Source: Bacteroidales bacterium (lineage in GTDB: Bacteria > Bacteroidota > Bacteroidia > Bacteroidales > UBA10428). From it: DNA of 64,000 nucleotides. Positions within the stretch are counted from its first letter, which is position 1. Every line of letters begins with the position of its first letter. Below are positions 17,294 to 64,000 of this stretch, piece by piece. Under the pieces are notes generated by a model. The model made no database searches and had not been told where the DNA came from. It saw nothing but the letters and a program-made list of their open reading frames with translations. Location of the stretch: assembly GCA_016934395.1 (NCBI GenBank), contig JAFGSZ010000057.1, positions 19,421 to 83,420 on the forward strand. The letters run 5' to 3'. Made by a program: the position numbers and the translations under genes.

Positions 17294-17388
17294 AGGTATG
17301 GATTTTAGTTCTGGTAAGTAAACAAAGATATTACACTCCGGCCATTCTACCAACCCTGTGGAAATATCAAACTTTGAAATGTTTTATG

Positions 17389-17396
17389 TATTTTTG
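17389..17396 (+). promoter_or_regulatory. Candidate -7 promoter box (TAnnTTTG) for the aspartase-like/hydF/hydE unit
   Basis: TATTTTTG lies 22 nt upstream of the ATG at 17418. This is a motif match only. Confidence 0.3.
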
Positions 17397-17417: not shown

Positions 17418-18869
17418 ATGCGCAAAGAAACAGATTTTATCGGTACAATTGAGATTCCTCAATCTTCCTTATTTGGTATTCATTCTGTAAGGGCGCAAAA
17501 TAATTTTCCCGATAAATCACCCTTTCTTATTGAATGGTATAAAGCTGTAGGATCTGTTAAAAAAGCCTGCTACCTTACTGCTGAAATATTTTTCAGGGAA
17601 GTTGAGACTAATTATCCGGATAAAAGTTTGCCTTTAAGGCAGATTGATGAAAAAATTCTGGAATCATTAATTTTATCTGCTGAAGATGTTGAAACCGGGA
17701 AATGGTTCGATCATTTTATTGTTCCGGCAATACAGGGAGGTGCAGGTACCAGTATTAATATGAATATCAATGAAATTATTGCTAACGCATCCCTTCTAAA
17801 GATGAACAAACAGCCGGGCGATTATCATTTCATTGATCCCGTTGAACATGCAAATATTTTCCAGTCCACAAATGATGTAATCCCCACTTCACTCAAATTG
17901 GCCACAATAAGGTTACTCACAGAGCTTGAGGAATCCATAAACCGGTTACGGCAAAGTGTGGAAAAGCTTGAGGGTAATTACCGGAACATTCTTCGGATAG
18001 GATACACGCAAATGCAGGAAGCCGTGCCAACCTCATATGGCAGGTTATTTGGATCGTATAGTGAAGCCCTGTCGCGTGACTGGTGGAGAGTATCAAAATG
18101 TTTTGAACGTATTAAAGTGGTAAACCTGGGGGGTAGCGCTATAGGGACCGGAATCACGGTTCCCCGTTATTTTATCATGAATGTAGTGCCTGCCCTGCAA
18201 AAGATTACAGACCTCCCACTTACACGTGGAGAAAACCTGGCTGATATTACCAGTAATTTAGATGCTTTTGTTGAGGTACATGCCATTCTTAAAACTCATG
18301 CAGTAAACCTCGAAAAGATGGTAAATGATCTTCGGCTTTTATCATCTGATTTGGTTCAGCCGGGTGAATTAAAAATTCCACAGAAACAAGTGGGCAGTTC
18401 CATTATGCCTGGAAAAGTTAATCCTGTAATTCCTGAGTTTGTTATAAGCGCTGCCCATAAAATTTATACCAACGATACGCTTATAACTTCGCTTTGTGCC
18501 CAGGGATGTCTGGAATTAAATGCCTATATACCGGTTATCGGCCACGCTCTGCTGGAAAGCATTAAATTACTCATAGCCTGTAATTTTACAATTTATGAAA
18601 ACCTGCTTTCCGGAATTGTTATCAGTGAAAGCACGGCGGCAAATAACCTGTTGGGCAGTCCGGTATTAACAACCTCGCTCCTTCCCTATATCGGATATCA
18701 TAAAGCTTCTGAGATGGCCCGTTTAATGAAAGAAAAAAAAATTGATATTTTTGCCGCTAATAAAGAATTGAATTATATTCCCGAAGCAAAGCTTAAAAAA
18801 ATACTCGAACCCCAACAATTACTTTCAGGCGGATTTTCAGTTCAGGATATCTTACAAAATGATGAATAA
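17418..18869 (+). CDS. aspA: Aspartate ammonia-lyase (aspartase/fumarase class II superfamily)
   Basis: N-terminus KETDFIGTIEIP...NFP, GAGTSINMNINEIIAN, and the signature GSSIMPGKVNPVIPE. The ATG at 17418 is preferred over the GTG at 17358. The stop overlaps the hydF start by 11 nt. Confidence 0.85.
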   Translation: MRKETDFIGTIEIPQSSLFGIHSVRAQNNFPDKSPFLIEWYKAVGSVKKACYLTAEIFFREVETNYPDKSLPLRQIDEKILESLILSAEDVETGKWFDHFIVPAIQGGAGTSINMNINEIIANASLLKMNKQPGDYHFIDPVEHANIFQSTNDVIPTSLKLATIRLLTELEESINRLRQSVEKLEGNYRNILRIGYTQMQEAVPTSYGRLFGSYSEALSRDWWRVSKCFERIKVVNLGGSAIGTGITVPRYFIMNVVPALQKITDLPLTRGENLADITSNLDAFVEVHAILKTHAVNLEKMVNDLRLLSSDLVQPGELKIPQKQVGSSIMPGKVNPVIPEFVISAAHKIYTNDTLITSLCAQGCLELNAYIPVIGHALLESIKLLIACNFTIYENLLSGIVISESTAANNLLGSPVLTTSLLPYIGYHKASEMARLMKEKKIDIFAANKELNYIPEAKLKKILEPQQLLSGGFSVQDILQNDE

Positions 18870-20091
18870 AGGAAAAGAAAGTAAACCCCATATCGGTATT
18901 TTCGGAAAACGAAACAGTGGCAAAAGCTCCCTGATAAATGTGCTTACCCAACAGGATATTGCTATAGTATCGGATAAAGCAGGAACTACCACCGATCCTG
19001 TAAAAAAATCGATGGAAATACCGGGTATTGGCCCGGTAGTATTGATCGATACCGCAGGCATAGACGATTCTGGAAAATTAGGTGACCTGAGAAAAAAAAA
19101 GACTTTCGATACAATTAAAACTATCGATTTTGCCCTGCTGGTAATTACTTCAAATAACTTTGGGGATTTTGAAAAAGATCTGATCCAACGGTTTTCTGAT
19201 TTTAACATACCCTTTATCATTGTTCATAATAAATCAGACCTTCAGCAATTACACGATAAGTTCAAAAATGATATCGGTATAAAAAACCAAAACCATATAA
19301 TTGATTTTTCTGCAAAATACCCCTTAAAACTTGAAGAACTTGTAGAAGTAATTAAAAGCAATATTCCTTCTACAGCATGGAAAAAACCTTCACTGCTTGG
19401 AGATTTGTTATCATATGGAGATATTGTATTACTGATTACCCCGATTGATATTGAGGCTCCGGAAGGCAGAATGATTTTACCCCAGGTGCAGGCTATACGG
19501 GATATTCTGGATAACGATTGTGTGGCAGTGGTATTAAAGGAACGTGAAGTAGATGCTTTTCTGCGGAAAACAGGAATAAAACCCAAACTGGCGGTTACCG
19601 ACAGCCAGGTATTTCTGAAAGCAGATGCCTCCATTCCAAAAGAAATTCCGCTTACCAGTTTCAGTATTATGCTGGCCAGACATAAAGGTGATTTTGAAAA
19701 CTACCTTAAAGGTACCCCAAAAATTTCTGAGCTTAAAGACGGCGACAGGATTTTACTGCTGGAATCGTGCACTCATCATGTATCCTGCGATGATATTGGC
19801 CGGGTAAAAATTCCCCGGTGGATCAGTAATTTTACAGGAAAACATTTAATTTATGATGTGGTAGCCGGGCTTGATAACCTGCAAAGGCCTATGGAAGAAT
19901 ATGCCCTGGTGATCCAGTGCGGTGGGTGTATGATTACACACAAACAATTGATAAACCGGCTGAAGCCTGCAGTAGATAAAAATATTCCGGTTACCAATTA
20001 TGGAATGGCAATTGCATATGTTCAGGGGATTTATAAGCGTGCAATTGCCCCATTTACCAGCATTGAAAAAGACACAATCCATTATTTATAA
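18859..20091 (+). CDS. hydF: [FeFe]-hydrogenase maturation GTPase HydF
   Basis: P-loop GIFGKRNSGKSSL, DTAG, NKSD, and C-terminal cluster motifs CTHH...CGGC. Confidence 0.92.
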   Translation: MMNKGKESKPHIGIFGKRNSGKSSLINVLTQQDIAIVSDKAGTTTDPVKKSMEIPGIGPVVLIDTAGIDDSGKLGDLRKKKTFDTIKTIDFALLVITSNNFGDFEKDLIQRFSDFNIPFIIVHNKSDLQQLHDKFKNDIGIKNQNHIIDFSAKYPLKLEELVEVIKSNIPSTAWKKPSLLGDLLSYGDIVLLITPIDIEAPEGRMILPQVQAIRDILDNDCVAVVLKEREVDAFLRKTGIKPKLAVTDSQVFLKADASIPKEIPLTSFSIMLARHKGDFENYLKGTPKISELKDGDRILLLESCTHHVSCDDIGRVKIPRWISNFTGKHLIYDVVAGLDNLQRPMEEYALVIQCGGCMITHKQLINRLKPAVDKNIPVTNYGMAIAYVQGIYKRAIAPFTSIEKDTIHYL

Positions 20092-20115
20092 ATAATATTT
20101 TGAAGGCAGATTAAA

Positions 20116-21225
20116 ATGGAGAGGAGCATTGCACAACTATTACAACTTGAATCTTTTACTAAAAGTGAAATTGTTGAACTACTCTCATCCGATGGAGAAG
20201 ACAAAGTTCAGCTGTTTAAAAAATCGGCTGCCGTAAAAGAAAAATACGTAAAAAATAAAGTTTATTTCAGGGGATTAATTGAATTTTCGAACATCTGTGA
20301 AAAGAACTGTTTTTATTGTGGCATTAGAAAAACAAATATGCATGTGCGCAGGTATAACCTTTCAGATGATGAGATATTACATGCAGCAAAATTTGCCTTC
20401 GATAACAATTACGGATCGATTGTATTACAATCGGGAGAAATACAAAGCCCGGTATTTACCAAACGAATCGAAAACCTGCTAAAAAAGATTGCAAGGTTTT
20501 CCGGTAATAAACTACGGGTAACCCTGTCGTTAGGAGAACAAAGTTATAAAACATACCGGCAATGGTTTGAAAGCGGCGCCCACCGTTATTTATTGCGCAT
20601 CGAATCCTCTAATCCTGAATTGTATAAAAAACTACACCCAAATGATGAACTGCACAGGTTTGAACGACGCCTGGAATCCCTTAAAATTCTTAAGGACATA
20701 GGTTATCAGACCGGCACAGGGGTAATGATCGGATTACCATTCCAAACCCTCGAAAACCTTGCTGATGATTTGCTGTTTATGAAAAACTTTAGTATTGATA
20801 TGGTGGGAATGGGACCCTATATAGAACATGCCGATACCCCGCTTTTTCAATATCGTCAAATGTTGTTACCTAAAGAAGAACGATTTCAGCTTGCATTAAA
20901 AATGATCGCGATATTGCGGATTATGATGAAGGATATCAATATTGCCTCGGCCACAGCCCTTCAGGCAATCGATAAACTGGGCCGCGAAAAAGCAATTAAA
21001 ATAGGCGCTAATGTAATTATGCCTAATGTAACTCCCGGCTATTACCGTGACGATTATGCTCTATATGAAAATAAACCATGCACCGATGAAAATCCCGAAG
21101 ATTGTATAAGCTGTCTTGAAGCCCGGATTGCGTTAAGCCTGAATAAAATTGGATTTGGTGAATGGGGAGATTCAGCACATTATAATAACCGGATGGGAAA
21201 AACAGAAACAAATCAGGATATATAA
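20116..21225 (+). CDS. hydE: [FeFe]-hydrogenase maturase HydE (radical SAM)
   Basis: CEKNCFYCGIRK radical-SAM motif in a BioB-like fold of the expected length. It lies adjacent to hydF. Confidence 0.9.
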   Translation: MERSIAQLLQLESFTKSEIVELLSSDGEDKVQLFKKSAAVKEKYVKNKVYFRGLIEFSNICEKNCFYCGIRKTNMHVRRYNLSDDEILHAAKFAFDNNYGSIVLQSGEIQSPVFTKRIENLLKKIARFSGNKLRVTLSLGEQSYKTYRQWFESGAHRYLLRIESSNPELYKKLHPNDELHRFERRLESLKILKDIGYQTGTGVMIGLPFQTLENLADDLLFMKNFSIDMVGMGPYIEHADTPLFQYRQMLLPKEERFQLALKMIAILRIMMKDINIASATALQAIDKLGREKAIKIGANVIMPNVTPGYYRDDYALYENKPCTDENPEDCISCLEARIALSLNKIGFGEWGDSAHYNNRMGKTETNQDI

Positions 21226-22409
21226 TGCCTGAGGGGCTTATTTTTGAATATATAAAAAATCAGAGCCAGTAAACCGATCATTACGAGAGTAAAGCCACTT
21301 TCAAAACGCATCATATTTTTCATTCCGATATTTTCTGCCAGAAAACCGATCCATGCATTACCCAGCGCCATTCCTCCGCCAAAGTAAAATGCATAAATAA
21401 ATGATTGTCCTGTAGCCCGCATTTCAGGGGGTATAAACTTGTGTACATATTCCACAAGAGCCACAAAAAACAACGCCAGACAAATGCCGTGTGTTGTTCC
21501 TGTAATTATGGCGATCCATGGATTTGATACCAGGCTGTAGATTAACATACGTAATGCTGTAACAAACATGGTGAGCAGAATAACCCTTTGATCACCAATG
21601 GCATTTACAATTCTTTTTCCATAAAAGAAAAATGGCAGTTCACTCATTGCCTGAAATACATAAGCGTATCCCACGTGGAAAAAACTGGCCCCAATATCCG
21701 CATAATACATATTAATAAACAAATGTATAGGGGCAGATGATATGCCGTAAAACAATAAAATAAGCAGGACAATGAATAATTGACGATTATGCAGTAACAC
21801 ACCTTTCAAATGACTTATTTGCATCGATTGCAAGTTCTTTTTAAATCGTAATGGCCGGTAAATAAATTTTATTAAAATCCAGTTCACCAAAAGAATCGAG
21901 GAAGCAATCGGAAAAATCAAAACCGACTTTTCGGCATTAATAATATAGCCTGTAAGCAGGGCAGACATTGCCCAGCCAACGGAGGCCCATAACCTTAATT
22001 CCCCAAACGATGATCGTTTATATTGCTCTACATAATCAAGCGCAATACTATCTACGAGCGAGTTTAGCGGATTATAGAAAAGAGTAAATACAAATGTAAA
22101 TACAACAAAAGCTATAAATGAATTTTGCAGTACAAAACCATAAAATAAAATAATCACTATAAATAATGCCAGCAATAATATGTTTTTCCGGCCAAACTTA
22201 TCGGCCAGCATACCCCACAAAGGGAGCACAAGGAGCATGTTTATCTGTTGGATTGCAGCAATGATTCCAATCTGACTATCTGAAAAGCCTGCATAGTCTT
22301 TAAGGAACAGGTTAAAAAAAGATAACCAGGCAGAAAACGCGGCATACGAAAGAAAATATATTATTCTTACAACAATTCCCTGGAAACGAAAGCCCTTTAA
22401 TGCCGCCAT
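21213..22409 (-). CDS. MFS transporter
   Basis: About 12 TM helices and the loop motif GMLADKFGRK between TM2 and TM3. Confidence 0.8.
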   Translation of the reverse strand: MAALKGFRFQGIVVRIIYFLSYAAFSAWLSFFNLFLKDYAGFSDSQIGIIAAIQQINMLLVLPLWGMLADKFGRKNILLLALFIVIILFYGFVLQNSFIAFVVFTFVFTLFYNPLNSLVDSIALDYVEQYKRSSFGELRLWASVGWAMSALLTGYIINAEKSVLIFPIASSILLVNWILIKFIYRPLRFKKNLQSMQISHLKGVLLHNRQLFIVLLILLFYGISSAPIHLFINMYYADIGASFFHVGYAYVFQAMSELPFFFYGKRIVNAIGDQRVILLTMFVTALRMLIYSLVSNPWIAIITGTTHGICLALFFVALVEYVHKFIPPEMRATGQSFIYAFYFGGGMALGNAWIGFLAENIGMKNMMRFESGFTLVMIGLLALIFYIFKNKPLRHYIS

Positions 22410-22500: not shown

Positions 22501-23934
22501 TTAGAAATACAGGTCTCTTTCGCCACTTTTTATTCGCTCGATTCGATCGCGGATTTCAGGAACATCCTGATGGCCATTAAGGCTGTTCAGATTATTTTCA
22601 ATTATTTCCCATCCTTTCTTTGCAGTTTTTTCCGGGGCATAATCTACAAGATATTCAGCAAGCGTAAGCATGGCATTGGGTGAGCAAAACCTCTTTATAA
22701 AACCCGGAACCGAAAATTCCATAAAATGCTCCCCGGTGCGTCCCAGCCGATAACAGGCTGTACAAAAAGAAGGCAAATAATCTTCATGTAAAAGTTCATC
22801 AATTACTTCATTTAATGAACGGTCATCATTTATCTTAAACTGTTCTTTATCCAGGTTTTGATTATCGTTTTTGGAAGCCGCGTAAGCCCCCAGTTCAATT
22901 TTAGTTCCGCCATCGATTTGTGAAACTCCAAAACGTAAAATTTCCTTGCGCAACTGTGCCGGCTCACGGGCAGTTAGAATTAACCCGGTATACGGCACCG
23001 CTAAACGAAGAATCGCCACTATACGCGAGAATTCATCATCATTAACAATAAATTTTGGATCCAGGTTTACCGTTGAAGCATCTTTCAGGCGAGGAAAAGA
23101 TATGGTATGTGGTCCTACATTATAGCAAGCTTCCAGATGATTTGTATGCCTTACCAGGGCCATAACCTCGAAGCGCCAGTTGTGCAATCCAAATAATGCA
23201 CCGATGCCTACATCGTCTAAGCCAGCCTCCTGCGCTCTGTCGAGAGCTGTTAACCGGTTATTGTAATCACTTTTTTTCCCGCCCGGATGATAGGTTTTAT
23301 AAGCTTCAGGATGGTAGGTTTCCTGAAATATCTGGTATGTGCCAATACCGGCCTCTTTTACTATTTTAAATCCTTCAATATCCATTGGGGCCGCATTGAT
23401 GTTTACCCTGCGAATTTCTCCGTTACCACACTTAACGTGATATACGGTTTTTACACAACTGGCAATAAACTCAGGATTATATTCAGGGTGTTCACCAAAA
23501 ACAAGTATTAATCGTTTCTGCCCATTTTCTTCGAGCGCTTCCACCTCCCGAACAAGTTCAGAATGCTCCAATGTTTTGCGGACCTGCGCTTTGTTGCTGG
23601 TCCTGAAACCGCAGTACTGACAGTTATTTGTACATTTATTACCTACATATAATGGCGCAAACAGTACGATACGGTTCCCGTATATATTTTCTTTTAATGT
23701 TCGCGCACCCTCTTTGATCAATTCTATTGATTCCGGGGAATCCGCATTGATAAGATAAGCAACCTCCATAAGATTTAACCGGTGCTTATCCAGCGACTTT
23801 GCAATTATATTTTTAATAATCTGCTGATCGGGCCTGGCATTGTAAAGGTATCCTTCAATTTCTTCAACATCAATAAAAGGCTTTTGAGGTTCGTCTGGAA
23901 TCTTGTATCGCTCCGGTTTAAATATCATAATCAA
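22501..23934 (-). CDS. hydG: [FeFe]-hydrogenase maturase HydG (radical SAM tyrosine lyase)
   Basis: CTNNCQYCGF radical-SAM motif, ThiH-like body, and C-terminal auxiliary-cluster cysteines (SFCTACYRLGRTGEHFMEF...FCSPN). Confidence 0.92.
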   Translation of the reverse strand: MIMIFKPERYKIPDEPQKPFIDVEEIEGYLYNARPDQQIIKNIIAKSLDKHRLNLMEVAYLINADSPESIELIKEGARTLKENIYGNRIVLFAPLYVGNKCTNNCQYCGFRTSNKAQVRKTLEHSELVREVEALEENGQKRLILVFGEHPEYNPEFIASCVKTVYHVKCGNGEIRRVNINAAPMDIEGFKIVKEAGIGTYQIFQETYHPEAYKTYHPGGKKSDYNNRLTALDRAQEAGLDDVGIGALFGLHNWRFEVMALVRHTNHLEACYNVGPHTISFPRLKDASTVNLDPKFIVNDDEFSRIVAILRLAVPYTGLILTAREPAQLRKEILRFGVSQIDGGTKIELGAYAASKNDNQNLDKEQFKINDDRSLNEVIDELLHEDYLPSFCTACYRLGRTGEHFMEFSVPGFIKRFCSPNAMLTLAEYLVDYAPEKTAKKGWEIIENNLNSLNGHQDVPEIRDRIERIKSGERDLYF

Positions 23935-23985: not shown

Positions 23986-24231
23986 TTACTGTTTAGACAT
24001 TACTGACCGTACTGAAACACCTTCAAGTTTTCCAATTTGTCCGGTAAGCGATCCTATTTCATCGGTTGTTCCTTCAAGAACCAGTGAAATTATATTCAGG
24101 TTCTTTTCCCTTACAGGTATACCTTGTCGTCCAAGAATTATAGATGCGTGTGAGGTAAGAATTTCATTCAGTTTATGAACGGAATCTTTCTTTTCAACAA
24201 TAATTAATGTAGCTCCTATTCTCCTTTCCAT
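23986..24231 (-). CDS. TM1266-family iron-only hydrogenase system regulator (ACT/NikR-C-like)
   Basis: An 81-aa protein of the size and pattern (IGATLIIVEK...LTSHASIILGRQGIP...ISLVLEGTTDEI) I associate with the TM1266 family. It lies directly upstream of hydG. Confidence 0.75.
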   Translation of the reverse strand: MERRIGATLIIVEKKDSVHKLNEILTSHASIILGRQGIPVREKNLNIISLVLEGTTDEIGSLTGQIGKLEGVSVRSVMSKQ

Positions 24232-24432
24232 CAGAGGTTTCCTTTGGATCTGACGTATTAAATTTAAATCCTTGAAGCAAAACCATTTTACTTCTCAGAA
24301 TTTGATGTGCAAAAATATTAAATTAAATGATCCTTTAAGCTCGATATATTATAAATTATTCCGGTTGGTAAAATTTATAACCACTCTAAATAATAAGCGC
24401 AATTATTATTAATGAAGCCTACAACTTTAATT

Positions 24433-57022: not shown

Positions 57023-58384
57023 ATGGCTGACCATACATTTCATCACGCATTAAAAATACTGGAGGAGGTTTGCATCGGATGTACCCATTGTATGCAGGCC
57101 TGCCCTACAGAAGCTTTGCGTGTACGAAACGGGAAAGCTGTTTTAAATAAAAACAAATGTGTAGATTGTGGTGAATGTATGCGGGTTTGCCCTGTTAACG
57201 CCATAACCGTTGAACAGGATGATTTTGAGGATATTTTTAAATTTAAGGTAAGAATTGCCCTGGTTCCGTCCGTTTTTATCGGCCAGTTTGCCAGAAATAT
57301 TCCCACCCGAAAAATATACAGCAGTATTCTTGAACAGGGTTTTACCCATGTTTACGAAGCCGAACACGGGGTAAACATATTAATAAATGCTGTTAATTCA
57401 TATCTCGATAACAGAAAAGAAATAAGACCTGTGATCTCTTCATTTTGCCCGGCCATAGTGCGTATGATACAGGTAAGGTTTCCTAACCTGGCAGAAAACA
57501 TCATGTTGTTAAAAGCCCCGTTGGATATTGCTGCTTTATCATATCGTAAAGTGCTGAATGAACGTGGTTACAACGATGACGAAATCGGTATTTATTATAT
57601 TACCCCTTGCGCCGCAAAAATTGCTGCAGTAAAAAGCCCGGTAGGTGAATTATCTTCTGCCATAACCGGCGTTATCAGGCTCGATTCGTTGTATAATAAA
57701 GTTTATTCATCCATTAAAAAAGAAGTAAACTCAAGTTGTATTGTTCCTGAAAAAGAACAGTTAAAACCGCGTGAAATGACCTGGAGCCTTACAGGAGGGG
57801 AATCACGGTTTATTAACGGCAGAAGCCTGGCAATCGATGGAATTAATAATGCCATAGAATTTTTAGAAAAAATTGAAAACGGCAGTATCAGCAATTTTGA
57901 TTTTATTGAGTTGCGGGCATGCGACGAAAGTTGCGCCGGGGGCATTCTTTCTGCCAATAACAGGTTTCTTGTTAGCGAAAGGCTAAAAGAACGGGCAAAA
58001 CAGTACAAACTGGATAAAAAAGAAGGGAAAATTATTAACAATAAAACCATCCGGCAAAACACAGAATACCTGCTGGACCATATTTCTATTGATGAAGTAA
58101 AAGCACGATCGGGACTGATGCTTGATGAAGACATGAATGCTGCCCTGAAAAAGATGGAGAAAATCCGGCAGTTCACCAACTATCTTCCCGGTATAGACTG
58201 TGCAGCATGTGGTGCTCCGTCTTGTAAAACACTGGCAGAAGATATTGTACAGGGAAATGCAAAAACATTGGATTGCATTTTTGTGCAATATGCAATAAAC
58301 CGTCAGGAAAGCAGCGAAAAAATGAATGACCAGATGGAGAAAATCTGGGGAACGGAAAAACTTAATAAACTAGCGGGCTCATAA
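57023..58384 (+). CDS. [FeFe]-hydrogenase-like putative sensory protein (2x[4Fe-4S] + H-domain + C-terminal 4-Cys FeS domain)
   Basis: CIGCTHCMQACP and CVDCGECMRVCP. Degenerate H-cluster motifs are SSFCPAI (F141-C142), TPCAAK (C196, K199) and ELRACDESCAGG (C300, C304). The C-terminal segment is CAACGAPSCKTLAEDIVQG...C. Confidence 0.85.
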   Translation: MADHTFHHALKILEEVCIGCTHCMQACPTEALRVRNGKAVLNKNKCVDCGECMRVCPVNAITVEQDDFEDIFKFKVRIALVPSVFIGQFARNIPTRKIYSSILEQGFTHVYEAEHGVNILINAVNSYLDNRKEIRPVISSFCPAIVRMIQVRFPNLAENIMLLKAPLDIAALSYRKVLNERGYNDDEIGIYYITPCAAKIAAVKSPVGELSSAITGVIRLDSLYNKVYSSIKKEVNSSCIVPEKEQLKPREMTWSLTGGESRFINGRSLAIDGINNAIEFLEKIENGSISNFDFIELRACDESCAGGILSANNRFLVSERLKERAKQYKLDKKEGKIINNKTIRQNTEYLLDHISIDEVKARSGLMLDEDMNAALKKMEKIRQFTNYLPGIDCAACGAPSCKTLAEDIVQGNAKTLDCIFVQYAINRQESSEKMNDQMEKIWGTEKLNKLAGS

Positions 58385-58395
58385 ATAATAAGAAT

Positions 58396-58728
58396 ATGAA
58401 TATTATTACTATCATCGATAAACTCGGATTAACACAACTTTCGGAAATTTTTAACCCGGAACAGGAAATTAATGGCGGGTATACTTCCGATTTATTAAGC
58501 GATGTAATGGGCAATGCTTCAGAGGGTGAAGTTTGGATTACCATGCAAACCCACAAAAATATTATTGCGGTAGCCAGCTTAAAAGAACTGGCAGCTATAA
58601 TAATAGTAAACAATCACAAACCTGAAAAAGATACGATAGAAGCAGCCGAAAAAGAACAAATACCCTTATTGGGAACAAATAATGGCGCATTCGAAATATC
58701 GGGTGAAATTTATAATTTATTAAAATGA
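58396..58728 (+). CDS. DRTGG domain protein (copy 2)
   Basis: 110 aa with the pattern SDLLSDVMGN...VWITMQTH. Confidence 0.7.
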   Translation: MNIITIIDKLGLTQLSEIFNPEQEINGGYTSDLLSDVMGNASEGEVWITMQTHKNIIAVASLKELAAIIIVNNHKPEKDTIEAAEKEQIPLLGTNNGAFEISGEIYNLLK

Positions 58729-59466
58729 ATGAAACAGTTTCGGGCTGATTTACACATTCATAGCGTTCTTTCTCCTTGCGGGTCACTGGACATGAGTCCG
58801 CAAAATATAATAAAAACAGCCCGTGAAAGGAATATTAACATACTTGGATTAACCGATCACAATACAACAAGGCATTGTGAAATCCTGGAAAAGCTGGGAA
58901 AACCTTACGGGATATTCGTTTTACCGGGAGTGGAAATTACCACAAAAGAAGAAATTCATTGTCTTGCGTTCTTTGAAAATATTGAAAAAACTGAGGAGTT
59001 TGAAAAGTATCTTACTATTCATCGCTCATCAATAAAAAACAGGCCGGATATTTTTGGCGACCAGCCTGTAATTGATGAAAATGAGCATATTGTTGAAATA
59101 ATTAAAACTGTGCTTACTGCTGCCCTTGATGCTGACCTGAAAAATATTGAGCAGAAAGTGCACGAATTAAACGGATTGTTTATTCCTGCACATATTGAAA
59201 GAGCTCACTACGGAATGATCAGTCAGATAGGATTTATCCCTGCAGATTTGGAGATGGATGCTGTTGAAATTCAACTACTCCATAAAATGGATTTAACATT
59301 AAAACAACAACTTGAATCCTTATCATTAACAATAATCCGTGGATCGGATGCACATACGCCGGAACAAATCGGCAGCAGAACCACCACTTTTTTGTTAAAC
59401 GACCTAAGTTTTCAGGAAATAAAACTTGCTCTTCTAAATAAAAACGGAAGAAAAGTATTGCTGTAA
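58729..59466 (+). CDS. PHP-domain phosphoesterase
   Basis: ADLHIHSVLSPCG, LGLTDHN, and a later GSDAH motif. Confidence 0.85.
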   Translation: MKQFRADLHIHSVLSPCGSLDMSPQNIIKTARERNINILGLTDHNTTRHCEILEKLGKPYGIFVLPGVEITTKEEIHCLAFFENIEKTEEFEKYLTIHRSSIKNRPDIFGDQPVIDENEHIVEIIKTVLTAALDADLKNIEQKVHELNGLFIPAHIERAHYGMISQIGFIPADLEMDAVEIQLLHKMDLTLKQQLESLSLTIIRGSDAHTPEQIGSRTTTFLLNDLSFQEIKLALLNKNGRKVLL

Positions 59467-59467
59467 T

Positions 59468-60010
59468 ATGAAAGACCTGTCGTTACATATTCTGGATATT
59501 GTGCAAAATTCTTTGCATGCAGGGGCAACAAGGGTAGATATCAGCATTACTGAAGATGTTGTAAAAAATATTTTTGAAATAACAATTAAAGATAACGGGT
59601 CTGGTATCGATCCGGGAAACTCTGAAAAAGTTACCGATCCATTTTATACAACAGGAACAAAAAAGAAAGTCGGATTGGGATTGGCGTTACTAAAACAAAA
59701 TGCAGAAGCTGCAGGTGGCTTTTTAAAAATTGAAAATTCGTTTCCCCGGGGAGTAAAAGTAACCGCAAGGTTTCAGCATAATCATATTGACCGCCAGCCG
59801 CTGGGGAAAATCGAAGAAACCATTAAAATATTGATGACCGCTATAAACCTGAGACTTATTTATTCGCATGAATACAACGGAAAAATTTTTGTGTTGGATA
59901 CGCTGGAAATAGAGGATGCGCTGGAAACTAAAAACTTATCCAATCCGAAAATAGTGAAATATATTACTGAAATGATTATCGAAAACCTAACAGATATTGG
60001 AGCTTATTAA
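59468..60010 (+). CDS. GHKL-type ATP-binding protein (histidine-kinase-like ATPase without an H-box)
   Basis: LDIVQNSLHAG (N-box), IKDNGSGI (G1) and GLGLALL (G2). No HisKA domain is present. Confidence 0.75.
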   Translation: MKDLSLHILDIVQNSLHAGATRVDISITEDVVKNIFEITIKDNGSGIDPGNSEKVTDPFYTTGTKKKVGLGLALLKQNAEAAGGFLKIENSFPRGVKVTARFQHNHIDRQPLGKIEETIKILMTAINLRLIYSHEYNGKIFVLDTLEIEDALETKNLSNPKIVKYITEMIIENLTDIGAY

Positions 60011-60050
60011 TCTTTAACAAGACTATAAAATTTTAAAACAAATTATAAAA

Positions 60051-60452
60051 ATGGGAAAAATAAAAACCTTAGCTGATTTGCGCAAAATGCGTGAGAAGCT
60101 TAAATCGGAAACCGACTTAAGGGACAAGAGTGAGCATCCCGAAGATATGGTACAAATTAAGGTGGCCATGGCAACCTGTTGTATTGCTTCCGGATCAAGG
60201 GAAACAATGAACTATATCGTTGATGAACTGGAAAAGCGAAATGTTGATGCCGTTGTTACCCAAACCGGTTGTATGGGTTATTGTTATGCCGAACCCACTG
60301 TGGAGGTTACTGTTCCGGGTAAAGAACCTATTGTTTTTGGTTATGTGGATGAAAAGAAGGCGAATGAGATTATTGAACGCTACATAAAAAACGGGGAACT
60401 GGTTGAAGGGATCATTCCAATGAATTACCGAAGTATTGAAGAAACAAAATAA
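60051..60452 (+). CDS. Thioredoxin-like (2Fe-2S) ferredoxin, HydD-like small subunit
   Basis: 133 aa with MATCCIASGS and TGCMGYCYAEP motifs. It lies directly upstream of hydB. Confidence 0.75.
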   Translation: MGKIKTLADLRKMREKLKSETDLRDKSEHPEDMVQIKVAMATCCIASGSRETMNYIVDELEKRNVDAVVTQTGCMGYCYAEPTVEVTVPGKEPIVFGYVDEKKANEIIERYIKNGELVEGIIPMNYRSIEETK

Positions 60453-60467
60453 ACAGGAGGGAAAATA

Positions 60468-62261
60468 ATGTCAGGATATAAAATACATTTACTGGTTTGC
60501 GGGGGTACCGGATGTAAAGCCTCTTTAAGCACAGCAGTAGTTGAAAACTTAAACCACGAAATAAAAACCCAGGGGCTTGATGATTTTGCCCAGGTGGTTA
60601 CTACAGGATGTTTTGGATTCTGTGAAAAAGGGCCGATTGTTAAAATCATTCCCGACAATACATTTTACGTTCAGGTAAAACCCGAAGATGCACGGGAAAT
60701 TGTTGAGGAACATATAGTAAAAGGAAGAAAGGTGGAGCGGCTTCTTTATCACGATCCTGATAAAGAAACTATTGTCAGCGACTCCAAACATATGAATTTT
60801 TATAAAAAACAGGTTCGTATAGCCCTCAGGAATTGTGGCGTTATTGATCCGGAAAATATCGATGAATACATTGCCAGAGATGGTTATAAAGCCCTGGGTA
60901 AAGTGCTTTCCGAAAAAACACCCGAAGAAGCAATTAAGCTGATCAAGGATTCAGGTTTGCGTGGCCGCGGCGGTGGAGGATTTTCTACCGGAATGAAATG
61001 GGAACTCGCTGCTAAAAATATAAGCGACGAAAAATATGTGGTGTGTAATGCTGATGAAGGTGACCCCGGTGCATTTATGGACCGGTCTATTCTTGAAGGT
61101 GATCCGCATACCGTGGTGGAAGCGATGGCCATTTGTGGATACTCCATTGGTTCAAATTATGGCCTGGTATACATTCGCGCCGAATATCCGCTTGCAATTG
61201 AACGTTTAAAAACAGCCATAAAGCAGGCCCGCGATTACGGATTACTGGGAAACAACATTCTTGGAACCGGGTTTAAATTCGATATAGAACTTCGATACGG
61301 AGCGGGCGCTTTTGTTTGTGGTGAAGAAACAGCCCTGATACATTCTATGGAAGGAAGCCGCGGCGAACCGACTATGAAACCGCCATTCCCTTCCGACTCG
61401 GGATATCTTGGTAAACCAACCACTGTAAATAATGTAGAAACATTTGCCAATATCCCGGTAATAATCAATAAAGGAGCAGCATGGTTCAGCAGTATTGGAA
61501 GTGAAAAAGCAAAAGGCACCAAGGTTTTTGCCCTTGCCGGGAAAATAAACAATGTAGGCCTTATTGAGGTGCCCATGGGAATCACTTTGCGTGAAGTAAT
61601 TTTTGAAATCGGCGGTGGAATTAAAAACGGTAAAAAATTTAAAGCCGTACAAACCGGTGGCCCTTCGGGAGGCTGTTTAACAGAAAAACATCTGGATACG
61701 CCCATCGATTATGATAATCTTATTGCTGCCGGTTCCATGATGGGATCCGGAGGTATGGTGGTAATGGACGAAGACGATTGTATGGTGGATGTGGCAAAAT
61801 TTTTCCTCGACTTTACCGTAGAAGAATCCTGCGGTAAATGCGCACCCTGCCGCATCGGGAATAAACGGTTACATGAAATTCTTGAAAAAATAACAAAAGG
61901 AAATGGTACCCCTGAAGATATTACCAGGCTTATAAATCTGGGAACCGTAATTAAAGACACTTCTCTGTGTGGCCTGGGACAAAGTTCTCCTAACCCGGTG
62001 CTCGCCACAATAAATAATTTTATGGATGAGTATACCGCACATATTGAAGATAAAAAGTGCCCGGCCGGAGTATGTAAAGCCCTGATGAAGTATGAGATTG
62101 TAGATGAAAATTGTGTGGGGTGTACCGCCTGCGCAAGAGCATGTCCTGTGGGAGCCATCACAGGAGAAAGGAAAGAGATTCATCATATTGATACGTCCTT
62201 GTGTATTAAATGCGGAGCATGTATTGATCGGTGTAAGTTTAATGCAGTTATAATAAAATAA
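60468..62261 (+). CDS. hydB: NuoF-like NAD(H)/FMN subunit of a bifurcating-type [FeFe] hydrogenase (HydB)
   Basis: N-terminal 2Fe-2S (VCGGTGC...TGCFGFCEKGP), GRGGGGFSTGMKWE, ESCGKCAPCR, and C-terminal CVGCTACARACP and CIKCGACIDRC. Confidence 0.92.
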   Translation: MSGYKIHLLVCGGTGCKASLSTAVVENLNHEIKTQGLDDFAQVVTTGCFGFCEKGPIVKIIPDNTFYVQVKPEDAREIVEEHIVKGRKVERLLYHDPDKETIVSDSKHMNFYKKQVRIALRNCGVIDPENIDEYIARDGYKALGKVLSEKTPEEAIKLIKDSGLRGRGGGGFSTGMKWELAAKNISDEKYVVCNADEGDPGAFMDRSILEGDPHTVVEAMAICGYSIGSNYGLVYIRAEYPLAIERLKTAIKQARDYGLLGNNILGTGFKFDIELRYGAGAFVCGEETALIHSMEGSRGEPTMKPPFPSDSGYLGKPTTVNNVETFANIPVIINKGAAWFSSIGSEKAKGTKVFALAGKINNVGLIEVPMGITLREVIFEIGGGIKNGKKFKAVQTGGPSGGCLTEKHLDTPIDYDNLIAAGSMMGSGGMVVMDEDDCMVDVAKFFLDFTVEESCGKCAPCRIGNKRLHEILEKITKGNGTPEDITRLINLGTVIKDTSLCGLGQSSPNPVLATINNFMDEYTAHIEDKKCPAGVCKALMKYEIVDENCVGCTACARACPVGAITGERKEIHHIDTSLCIKCGACIDRCKFNAVIIK

Positions 62262-62270
62262 ATATCAAAA

Positions 62271-64000
62271 ATGGAAAAGGTAAAACTCACTATAGATAAT
62301 AAAACGGTTGAAGTGGAAAAGGGAACCACTATTTACAAAGCAGCTAAAACTATTGGTATTGATATTCCGGTGCTTTGTTATATGGATCTTGGAGACCTGA
62401 ATATAGAAAATAAACCCGGGGGATGCCGCATGTGTTCTGTTGAGGTGCAGGGAAGAAGAAATCTTGCCCCTTCATGTGCCACAGACGTTTTTGATGGAAT
62501 GGTAGTCAATACCCATTCTATGCGTGTGTTGAATGCCCGAAGAGTAGTTATGGAACTTATTCTTTCCGATCACCCGAAAGATTGCCTGGTATGCCCGAAA
62601 TCAGGAAATTGTGAATTGCAAAGCCTCGCCAATAAACTTGGAATACGTGAAATTCCCAACCAGGATATTGCTGAAATGTCTACCTATCGTAAGGATTTTT
62701 CACCAAGCATTATCCGCGATATGGACAAATGTATTATGTGCCGCAGGTGCGAGACTATGTGTAACGAATTTCAGACAGTAGGAGCGCTTTCAGCAGTTAA
62801 CCGTGGTTTTATGTCTGTGGTTGCCCCGGCATTTGAAATGGACCTTGAAGATTCCGTATGTACCTATTGCGGACAATGTGTGGCTGTTTGCCCAACCGGC
62901 GCCCTCACTGAAGTAAACCATACCAACAGGTTGATCCGCGACTTGTCGAATCCGAATAAAACCGTTATCGTTCAGACAGCTCCGGCTGTAAGGGCCGCAC
63001 TGGGTGAAGAATTCGGACATAAGCCCGGAACCCTGGTAACCGGAAAAATGGTTTCTGCACTCAAACAATTGGGATTTCACCATGTATTTGACACTGATTT
63101 TGCTGCCGATCTAACTATTATGGAAGAAGGTACCGAGTTGCTTAGCCGCCTGACCAGGCATTTAAATGGTGACAAAAGCGTTAAACTACCTATGTTAACA
63201 TCTTGTTGTCCGGGATGGGTTAACTTTTTTGAATCCCAGTTTACCGACATGCTAGATATTCCTTCAACCGCAAGGTCACCCCAACAAATGTTTGGTTCTA
63301 TAGCAAAGACTTATTTTGCAGATTTAATAAATATACCCCGCGAAGATCTGATTGTAGTATCTATAATGCCCTGCCTGGCTAAAAAATACGAATGTCAGCG
63401 CGATGAATTTAAAGTGGATGGAAACCCGGATGTAGATTATTCGATCTCTACAAGGGAACTTGCCCACCTTATTAAAAGAGCCAACATCGATTTTGATTCC
63501 CTTTCTGAAGAAGATTTTGATCAGCCACTGGGAGAGTCAACAGGAGCTGGTGTAATATTCGGTACTACAGGTGGCGTTATCGAAGCAGCTGTGCGAACAG
63601 CTTACGAATTGCATACAGGAAAAACCCTGCAGGATGTAGATTTTAAAGAACTCAGGGGAATGGATGGAATACGCCATGCCACCATAGATTTTGACGGGCA
63701 ACCCATAAATATTGGTATTGCCCACGGATTGGGAAAAGCAAGACAATTACTGGAAGGTATTCGTAACGGCACATCTGAATTTCACGCTATTGAAATTATG
63801 GCCTGCCCCGGTGGTTGTATTGGTGGCGGTGGTCAACCATTACATCATGGTAAATTTGAAATTCTGCAAAAACGCATGGAAGCCATTTACCAGGAAGACA
63901 AAAACAAACCGCTGCGTAAATCGCATGAAAATCCATATATTATAAAACTGTATGAGGAATTCCTGGGCAAACCGATGAGCGAAAAAGCCCATAAATTGTT
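62271..64000 (+). CDS. hydA: [FeFe] hydrogenase catalytic subunit HydA (group A, M3 architecture), 3' end truncated by the window
   Basis: My own translation from the ATG at 62271 gives 2Fe-2S (LCYM...GGCRMCSVEV), HPKDCLVCPKSGNCELQ, CIMCRRCETMC and CTYCGQCVAVCP. All three canonical H-cluster motifs are present: TSCCPGW, MPCLAKKYE and EIMACPGGCIGGGGQP. The frame stays open to base 64000. Confidence 0.93.
   Translation, partial: MEKVKLTIDNKTVEVEKGTTIYKAAKTIGIDIPVLCYMDLGDLNIENKPGGCRMCSVEVQGRRNLAPSCATDVFDGMVVNTHSMRVLNARRVVMELILSDHPKDCLVCPKSGNCELQSLANKLGIREIPNQDIAEMSTYRKDFSPSIIRDMDKCIMCRRCETMCNEFQTVGALSAVNRGFMSVVAPAFEMDLEDSVCTYCGQCVAVCPTGALTEVNHTNRLIRDLSNPNKTVIVQTAPAVRAALGEEFGHKPGTLVTGKMVSALKQLGFHHVFDTDFAADLTIMEEGTELLSRLTRHLNGDKSVKLPMLTSCCPGWVNFFESQFTDMLDIPSTARSPQQMFGSIAKTYFADLINIPREDLIVVSIMPCLAKKYECQRDEFKVDGNPDVDYSISTRELAHLIKRANIDFDSLSEEDFDQPLGESTGAGVIFGTTGGVIEAAVRTAYELHTGKTLQDVDFKELRGMDGIRHATIDFDGQPINIGIAHGLGKARQLLEGIRNGTSEFHAIEIMACPGGCIGGGGQPLHHGKFEILQKRMEAIYQEDKNKPLRKSHENPYIIKLYEEFLGKPMSEKAHKL

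Follow-up and report, generated by a model that had tools for sequence, protein, structure and literature searches.

A lyase gene overlapping hydF in a Bacteroidales bacterium belongs to a separate aspartase clade and probably serves ammonium supply for H-cluster assembly

Introduction

Why should a gene of the aspartase/fumarase superfamily run into hydF, the gene of an H-cluster maturation factor? The question is raised by a stretch of 64,000 nucleotides from a Bacteroidales bacterium (contig JAFGSZ010000057.1 of assembly GCA_016934395.1, positions 19,421 to 83,420 of the forward strand), hereafter called the window, in which such a gene (17418-18869, plus strand; hereafter the lyase) shares its last nucleotides with the beginning of hydF and is followed by hydE. 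An earlier note, made from the letters of this DNA, had suggested that the lyase may be a local ammonia source dedicated to H-cluster biosynthesis rather than a housekeeping aspartase. We report here that the lyase belongs to a HydF-associated clade that is sister to, and distinct from, canonical AspA, and that this probable aspartase, presumably produced along with HydF and HydE, most likely feeds ammonium to the assembly of the dithiomethylamine (DTMA) bridge.

Both the arrangement and its ammonia explanation were published between 2012 and 2024. A genome note of 2012 recorded the gene order for Pelobacter carbinolicus (PMC3543383), and one of 2016 did so for Sulfurospirillum cavolei and Desulfovibrio vulgaris (PMC4794192). 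Pagnier et al. (2024, J Biol Chem 300:107760, PMC11736057) analyzed systematically the genome association of aspA with hydF, proposed that the lyase supplies ammonia for the DTMA bridge, and showed in vitro, with a defined maturation system that contained E. coli AspA, that 15N supplied as aspartate ends up in DTMA. The role of aspartase in maturation was restated in 2025 (PMC12501116). The idea of a local ammonia source put forward in the earlier note is therefore not new, and it has published in vitro support, obtained with the E. coli enzyme only. The system of Pagnier et al. resembles the present one in having an aspartase gene beside hydF in a hydE/F/G cluster and in the ammonium role proposed for it via the H- and T-proteins of glycine cleavage, and the locus of the window is an ordinary instance of this known arrangement. 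What we add is modest, namely the separation of the clade, its residue signature, its co-occurrence with hydF when the two genes are unlinked, and a set of exceptions. Our literature search, with subscription journals outside its reach, found no paper stating any of these four points.

Results

The lyase gene overlaps hydF and precedes hydE

The open reading frame of the lyase starts with an ATG at 17418, ends with a TAA at 18869 and encodes 483 amino acids. An alternative in-frame GTG start at 17358 would add 20 residues, but alignments with homologs and with E. coli AspA begin at residue 1-2 of the ATG form. In the sequence aaaATGATGAATAAagg the ATG of hydF is found at 18859 and the TAA of the lyase at 18867-18869 (plus strand), which gives an overlap of 11 nt (18859-18869, ATGATGAATAA), reduced to 8 nt if hydF begins at its second ATG. 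Such a stop/start overlap makes translational coupling of the lyase to hydF likely. The hydF gene (18859-20091, plus strand) encodes a GTPase and scaffold of H-cluster maturation of 410 amino acids that scores 498.5 bits against TIGR03918 (cut-off 325.55) and contains the Pfam domains HydF_dimer, HydF_tetramer, and MMR_HSR1. After a gap of 24 nt (20091 to 20116) it is followed by hydE (20116-21225, plus strand; 369 amino acids; TIGR03956, 343.7 bits, cut-off 254.6), and hydG (22501-23934, minus strand; 477 amino acids; TIGR03955, 500.6 bits, cut-off 312.15) lies within 2.5 kb; both encode radical S-adenosylmethionine maturases. All three maturases thus exceed the cut-offs of their NCBIfam equivalog models, and the lyase, which overlaps an authentic hydF with hydE and hydG nearby, falls within the hyd-operon-associated aspA genes of Pagnier et al. 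In these respects the earlier reading of the locus, with a full-length superfamily gene carrying GSSIMPGKVNP, an 11-nt overlap with hydF, and hydE 24 nt further on, was correct.

The same reading had also placed a TAnnTTTG box in front of the lyase gene only, and this did not hold. The sequence TATTTTTG at 17389-17396 (plus strand), 22 nt upstream of the lyase ATG, matches the Bacteroidota -7 box TAnnTTTG and is a possible, weakly indicated promoter element. A second TATTTTTG falls within the lyase gene at 18746-18753 (plus strand), where it precedes hydF by 106 nt, and there is a further TAnnTTTG match at 19155 (plus strand). In the window as a whole the motif is less frequent than expected by chance, with 58 matches observed and 89 expected from shuffled sequences. 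Because of the copies at 18746 and 19155 and the absence of enrichment, the box gives no evidence for a single promoter. A scan for sigma-70-type promoters likewise yielded sites no more numerous than in shuffled sequence.

The lyase carries the active site of an aspartate ammonia-lyase

Analysis of the protein with Pfam revealed the domains PF00206 Lyase_1 (196.5 bits, cut-off 27) and PF10415 FumaraseC_C (38.6 bits, cut-off 32.5), which together with the GSSxMPxKxN motif place it in the aspartase/fumarase superfamily; the SS loop GSSIMPGKVNP corresponds to residues 326-336. Its best matches in the PDB were E. coli AspA (1jsw, 3.6e-85) and Bacillus AspB (1j3u, 4.5e-84), with fumarases next at about 1e-60, and the best NCBIfam families were the aspartate ammonia-lyase models NF008909 and TIGR00839. 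Close relatives are named "lyase family protein", "hypothetical protein" or "aspartate ammonia-lyase" by NCBI.

The residues that bind aspartate or act in catalysis in AspB are T101, S140, T141, N142, T187, H188, S318, S319, M321, K324, and N326 (PMC11744663). Apart from H188, in place of which the lyase has Q like E. coli AspA, all of them have equivalents in the lyase, and these equivalents are nearly invariant in the clade (at least 55 of 63 members). An R-to-Y change, which turns GRT into GYT (GYTQ in the lyase), is limited to the Bacteroidales branch, and the superfamily tolerates it, since the same Y occurs in the ArgH of this very genome (GYTH). Judged by its residues, the protein qualifies as an aspartate ammonia-lyase, and we infer that it is catalytically competent in converting L-aspartate to fumarate and NH4+. 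As all aspartate-binding and catalytic residues are present, a different substrate is not indicated, and the "another lyase activity" that the earlier note had offered as an option is unlikely.

Canonical aspartases, represented by AspA of E. coli (1JSW) and AspB of Bacillus sp. YM55-1 (1J3U/3R6V), have the same fold and domain order as the lyase, which is about 35% identical to the E. coli enzyme over its full length and in which the motifs QSTND and GxTQ/H and the SS loop GSSxMPxKxNP are all intact. The lyase differs from E. coli AspA by an 11-residue insertion near residue 60, from canonical AspA in general by GYT in place of GRT and by a clade signature described below, and in its genomic partner, which is hydF rather than the dcuA of canonical AspA. 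Class II fumarase (FumC) belongs to the same superfamily and has its SS-loop chemistry in common with the lyase, but unlike the lyase it contains SQSSND and GRTH. Identity to E. coli FumC is 61% for the genome's own FumC and only 29% for the lyase.

hyd-linked lyases form a clade of their own with a residue signature

In a maximum-likelihood tree of 114 rows, all hyd-linked lyases fell into one clade (SH-like approximate likelihood ratio test [SH-aLRT] 97), the sister group of which comprised E. coli AspA and the unlinked AspA genes of the phylum. A second tree of 58 rows, computed under LG+C20 with ultrafast bootstrap (UFboot), recovered the hyd clade with UFboot 100/SH-aLRT 98 and a separate clade of E. 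coli AspA with 98/99, both inside a larger clade without FumC-like sequences (100/98). The lyase of the window was thus placed outside the clade of E. coli AspA, and the phylogeny of hyd-linked versus housekeeping aspartases that the earlier note had proposed resolves the two as separate.

No residue discriminated the clades under strict criteria, which demanded conservation of at least 85% in the hyd clade and of at least 80%, with another residue, in the AspA clade. Relaxed criteria led to an eight-position signature, RD[RW]WR..[FY]K..ER[LI][RK] (residues about 220-234 of the window protein) together with E185, R270, and E286. In the window lyase the corresponding segment reads SRDWWRVSKCFERIK (residues about 219-233). 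None of the signature positions belongs to a known active-site motif, and the signature residues are absent from AspA and FumC. Pagnier et al. identified their hyd-associated aspA genes by Pfam domain only (PMC11736057) and tested a housekeeping AspA, whereas the hyd-linked genes described here constitute a clade of their own with a signature, and the window lyase comes from a genome without any other aspartase. A distinct, signature-bearing clade shows experimenters which protein to test.

The clade is linked to hydF across genomes

We then considered 80 related loci from species genomes, with lyases 60-70% identical to that of the window, which came from uncultured Bacteroidales and from Carboxylicivirga and Saccharicrinis, and 73 of which were assessable for hydF. 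The hydF gene was directly downstream of the lyase on the same strand in 35 of the 73 loci and within 10 kb of it in 52, while the remaining 21 had no hydF in the available flank. Among 28 adjacent pairs that were measured, 17 either overlapped or were separated by at most 30 nt, and overlaps of 4-14 nt were present in unrelated lineages. Adjacency is not the whole of the association: when the lyase of a Bacteroidales genome did not adjoin hydF, the latter was found elsewhere in the genome in 11 of 12 cases, so that co-occurrence outlasts the loss of adjacency. One separated pair (L008, 11457-17765) has an insertion of about 6 kb between lyase and hydF, composed of two family-2 glycosyltransferase genes, an LPG-synthase-TM-like gene, and two open reading frames without a family match. 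Hidden hyd genes between a distant lyase and hydF are thereby ruled out in this locus, the genes there being of the glycosyltransferase and membrane kind.

Genome co-occurrence was assessed in an even set of 301 genomes of the phylum, in which HydF was called by its cut-off and the lyase type by a match to the window protein that scored 300 bits or more. HydF was found in 15 genomes, the lyase type in 12, and both in 10 (Fisher p = 1.3e-13, a value uncorrected for shared ancestry, with 9 of the 10 carriers in one family). The lyase was directly upstream of hydF in all 10 co-carriers, that is, in 10 of the 12 genomes with the lyase type, whereas lower-scoring aspartase homologs were never near hydF, and canonical AspA genes of the phylum were never next to it in the loci examined. 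The same picture was obtained in distant lineages, where nine clade representatives (of clusters at 50% identity), 37-44% identical to the window protein, were inspected. Eight of them stand among hydG, hydE, hydF, hydA or TM1266-like genes, in the orders hydG-hydE-lyase-hydF; lyase-hydG; hydG-lyase-hydF; hydA...lyase-hydF; lyase-hydF-hydE; lyase-hydF-TM1266-like; hydE-lyase-hydF; and TM1266-like-lyase-hydF-hydG-hydE. The ninth (P0152) is not among hyd genes, nor are three representatives just outside the clade. A strong tie of the clade to hyd genes, the lack of which would have counted as a refutation for the earlier note, is thus seen both in adjacency and in genome co-occurrence.

Proposed role in maturation and its rivals

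These findings lead us to favor the following mechanism, which is the one already published (PMC11736057, PMC12501116). The lyase would be made with HydF and HydE from one transcript, with its translation coupled to that of hydF, so that its synthesis would be tied to the synthesis of HydF. It would split aspartate into fumarate and ammonium; the T-protein would combine the ammonium with methylene-tetrahydrofolate and load the H-protein as aminomethyl-lipoyl-H-protein, and the latter would donate the CH2-NH-CH2 bridge of the DTMA ligand that is assembled on HydF. GcvP, GcvH, and GcvT are all encoded in the genome, and [FeFe]-hydrogenase genes are present in the same window as the maturases. 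The aspartase activity of the window lyase, its co-transcription with hydF and hydE, and its part in maturation in vivo are all deductions, and the enzyme may also act in general aspartate catabolism, as the sole aspartase homolog of the genome.

Several observations weigh against ammonium supply as the role of the lyase or limit its reading as a dedicated enzyme. (i) Cells normally have plenty of free ammonium, so it is not evident why a dedicated source should be needed. (ii) The co-transcription of lyase, hydF, and hydE is read from gene spacing only. (iii) The lyase remains under both curated AspA cut-offs (NF008909, 440.8 versus 510; TIGR00839, 371 versus 681.2), and thus is not a canonical AspA by whole-protein NCBIfam score. 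(iv) Our literature search found no assay of any enzyme of the hyd-linked clade, the published experiment having used the housekeeping AspA of E. coli. (v) A search for Lyase_1 in the assembly (155 contigs, 98.6% complete) identified the lyase as the only aspartase homolog, the other genes with this domain being FumC, PurB, and ArgH. (vi) Two genomes of the sample (G121 and G041) keep the lyase type without HydF and HydG. The locus of the former (L085, G121:C2, 5955-8380) is syntenic with that of another carrier (L087, G185:C4, 4606-8422), and hydF is cleanly missing from it between the lyase and a neighboring gene for a protein of 326 amino acids, while the lyase itself is intact and retains the clade signature. 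(vii) The lyase type is missing from 5 of the 15 HydF-positive genomes, three of which have a canonical AspA and one of which has no aspartase/fumarase match at E ≤ 1e-40. Because of these five genomes the lyase is not required for maturation; it is neither necessary for maturation nor useless without maturation genes. Any model must explain such exceptions, namely HydF-positive genomes that do without the lyase and HydF-negative ones that keep it.

The earlier note had asked about a second, housekeeping aspA elsewhere in the genome. None was found, and a tblastn search with E. coli AspA agreed with the domain search. The genome's FumC gene (contig C76:62625-63591, locus L001) is cut at residue 325 by the contig end. 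Queries from E. coli, run with tblastn against the whole assembly, gave no homolog of class I fumarase, SdaA or DcuA; for SdaA there was no match at 1e-8, and the best IlvA-like match was weak (32% identity over 300 of 514 residues, contig C118). Carriers of aspA were stated by Pagnier et al. always to possess sdaA or ilvA too (PMC11736057), a rule that the present genome, with no SdaA homolog and only this weak IlvA-like match, does not clearly bear out. Comparable inventories were obtained elsewhere, as in five related genomes (G057, G105, G185, G225, and G121) the lyase type and FumC were the only aspartase/fumarase-type matches, and in several carriers of another family the second match was a FumC 60-62% identical to that of E. 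coli. In the five genomes, the lyase type must therefore cover any need for aspartase. Of the earlier proposal of a dedicated rather than housekeeping enzyme, what stands is a distinct clade tied to hydF, hydE, and hydG; "dedicated rather than housekeeping" stays unproven, because the lyase is the sole aspartase, occurs without HydF in two genomes, and is lacking from a third of those with HydF.

It is on this ground that the best of the rival explanations rests. The lyase could be an ordinary catabolic aspartase, co-regulated with fermentative or anaerobic functions and without a specific part in H-cluster assembly, for which aspartate would provide nitrogen as well as fumarate, the latter as an electron sink coordinated with H2 metabolism. 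The sole aspartase of the window's genome, the five genomes restricted to the lyase type and FumC, and the persistence of the lyase in G121 and G041 all speak for it, and metabolic interpretations along these lines have been put forward for Pelobacter (PMC3543383) and taken up in the discussion of Pagnier et al. (PMC11736057). However, the lyase is linked to the maturase gene hydF, often through overlapping codons, rather than to fumarate reductase or hydrogenase structural genes; the link recurs in deeply divergent lineages; the canonical AspA genes of the phylum were never beside hydF in the loci examined; and the E. coli query found no DcuA-type transporter homolog in the genome. We accordingly regard a purely catabolic role as unlikely, while ranking it first among the rivals.

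A more specialized explanation makes the lyase a fourth maturation factor. In its broader form, which we hold to be quite improbable, the putative surface signature would dock HydF or the aminomethyl-H-protein/T-protein, the bulk ammonium pool would be bypassed, and the ammonia derived from aspartate would be handed on locally or would gate the cation-dependent GTPase of HydF. In its narrower form, which strikes us as slightly more doubtful still, the putative signature would dock on HydF, and the enzyme would deliver ammonia locally, gate the cation-stimulated GTPase or act on a substrate other than free aspartate. Conserved clade residues outside the active-site motifs, which are not found in AspA and FumC, the frequent overlap with hydF suggestive of translational coupling, and the stimulation of HydF GTP hydrolysis by ammonium (PMC11736057) are consistent with docking. 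On the other hand, none of the long relatives examined was a fusion with HydF or another Hyd protein, the active site does not depart from that of ordinary aspartases, and the lyase persists in genomes that lack HydF and frequently shows no linkage to hydF. Finally, that the adjacency is a chance or lineage-specific accident without functional meaning is scarcely credible, since the fluid gene order around the pair, such as the glycosyltransferase genes of L008, and the 21 loci without hydF in their flank are outweighed by linkage data that contradict it, namely a pairing in many independent lineages with different surrounding genes, a genome co-occurrence that persists when the genes are unlinked, and the Fisher probability given above.

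Other genes of the locus and minor observations on relatives

The long relatives examined carry aspartase-family domains joined to cyclic nucleotide monophosphate (cNMP)-binding, malic-enzyme, methyltransferase or peptidase S51 domains. Examples are P0209 (878 amino acids), with a malic enzyme domain, P0127 (1420 amino acids), with cNMP-binding domains and two Lyase_1 stretches, and P0230 (676 amino acids), with a peptidase S51 domain. We take peptidase S51 to include cyanophycinase and aspartyl dipeptidase, and if this is right, the fusion in P0230 would couple aspartate release to deamination. Among the related loci, L017 and L020 are located on different contigs of one metagenome-assembled genome (Bacteroidales bacterium 20BLK6-1.bin.63), each with a lyase copy 65-66% identical to the window protein, and no hydF was found in that assembly; the pair may reflect a mixed bin or a duplication.

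Within the window, a gene for an MFS_1_like transporter (21213-22409, minus strand; PF12832, 210.7 bits) lies between hydE and hydG, downstream of the latter, and its 3' end shares 13 nt with the convergent 3' end of hydE. The transporter had no homolog in the 80 related loci at 1e-20 and hence is not a conserved partner. In an unrelated lineage, however, a PF12832 gene (L114, 8781-10004) likewise has hydF and a TM1266-like gene in its neighborhood.

A group of hydrogenase genes occupies 57023-64000 of the window. It includes a HydA-like protein of 453 amino acids with a weak H-cluster domain and a C-terminal iron-sulfur domain (57023-58384), a NuoF-like subunit (60468-62261), and a full HydA that starts at 62271 and runs past the window end, and it also holds a PHP-domain protein and a HATPase_c protein.

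Directly upstream of hydG is a gene for a TM1266-like small protein of 81 amino acids (23986-24231, minus strand; PF21699, 92.4 bits, cut-off 27), annotated as a putative iron-only hydrogenase system regulator. An Rfam scan of the window gave no family at its gathering score. The TM1266-like open reading frame is preceded, in the region 24232-24330 (minus strand), by a leader of about 75 nt, beyond which lies a TATTTTTG box (24317-24310, minus strand). The leader may form a hairpin (AAGGAT...ATCCAAAGG).

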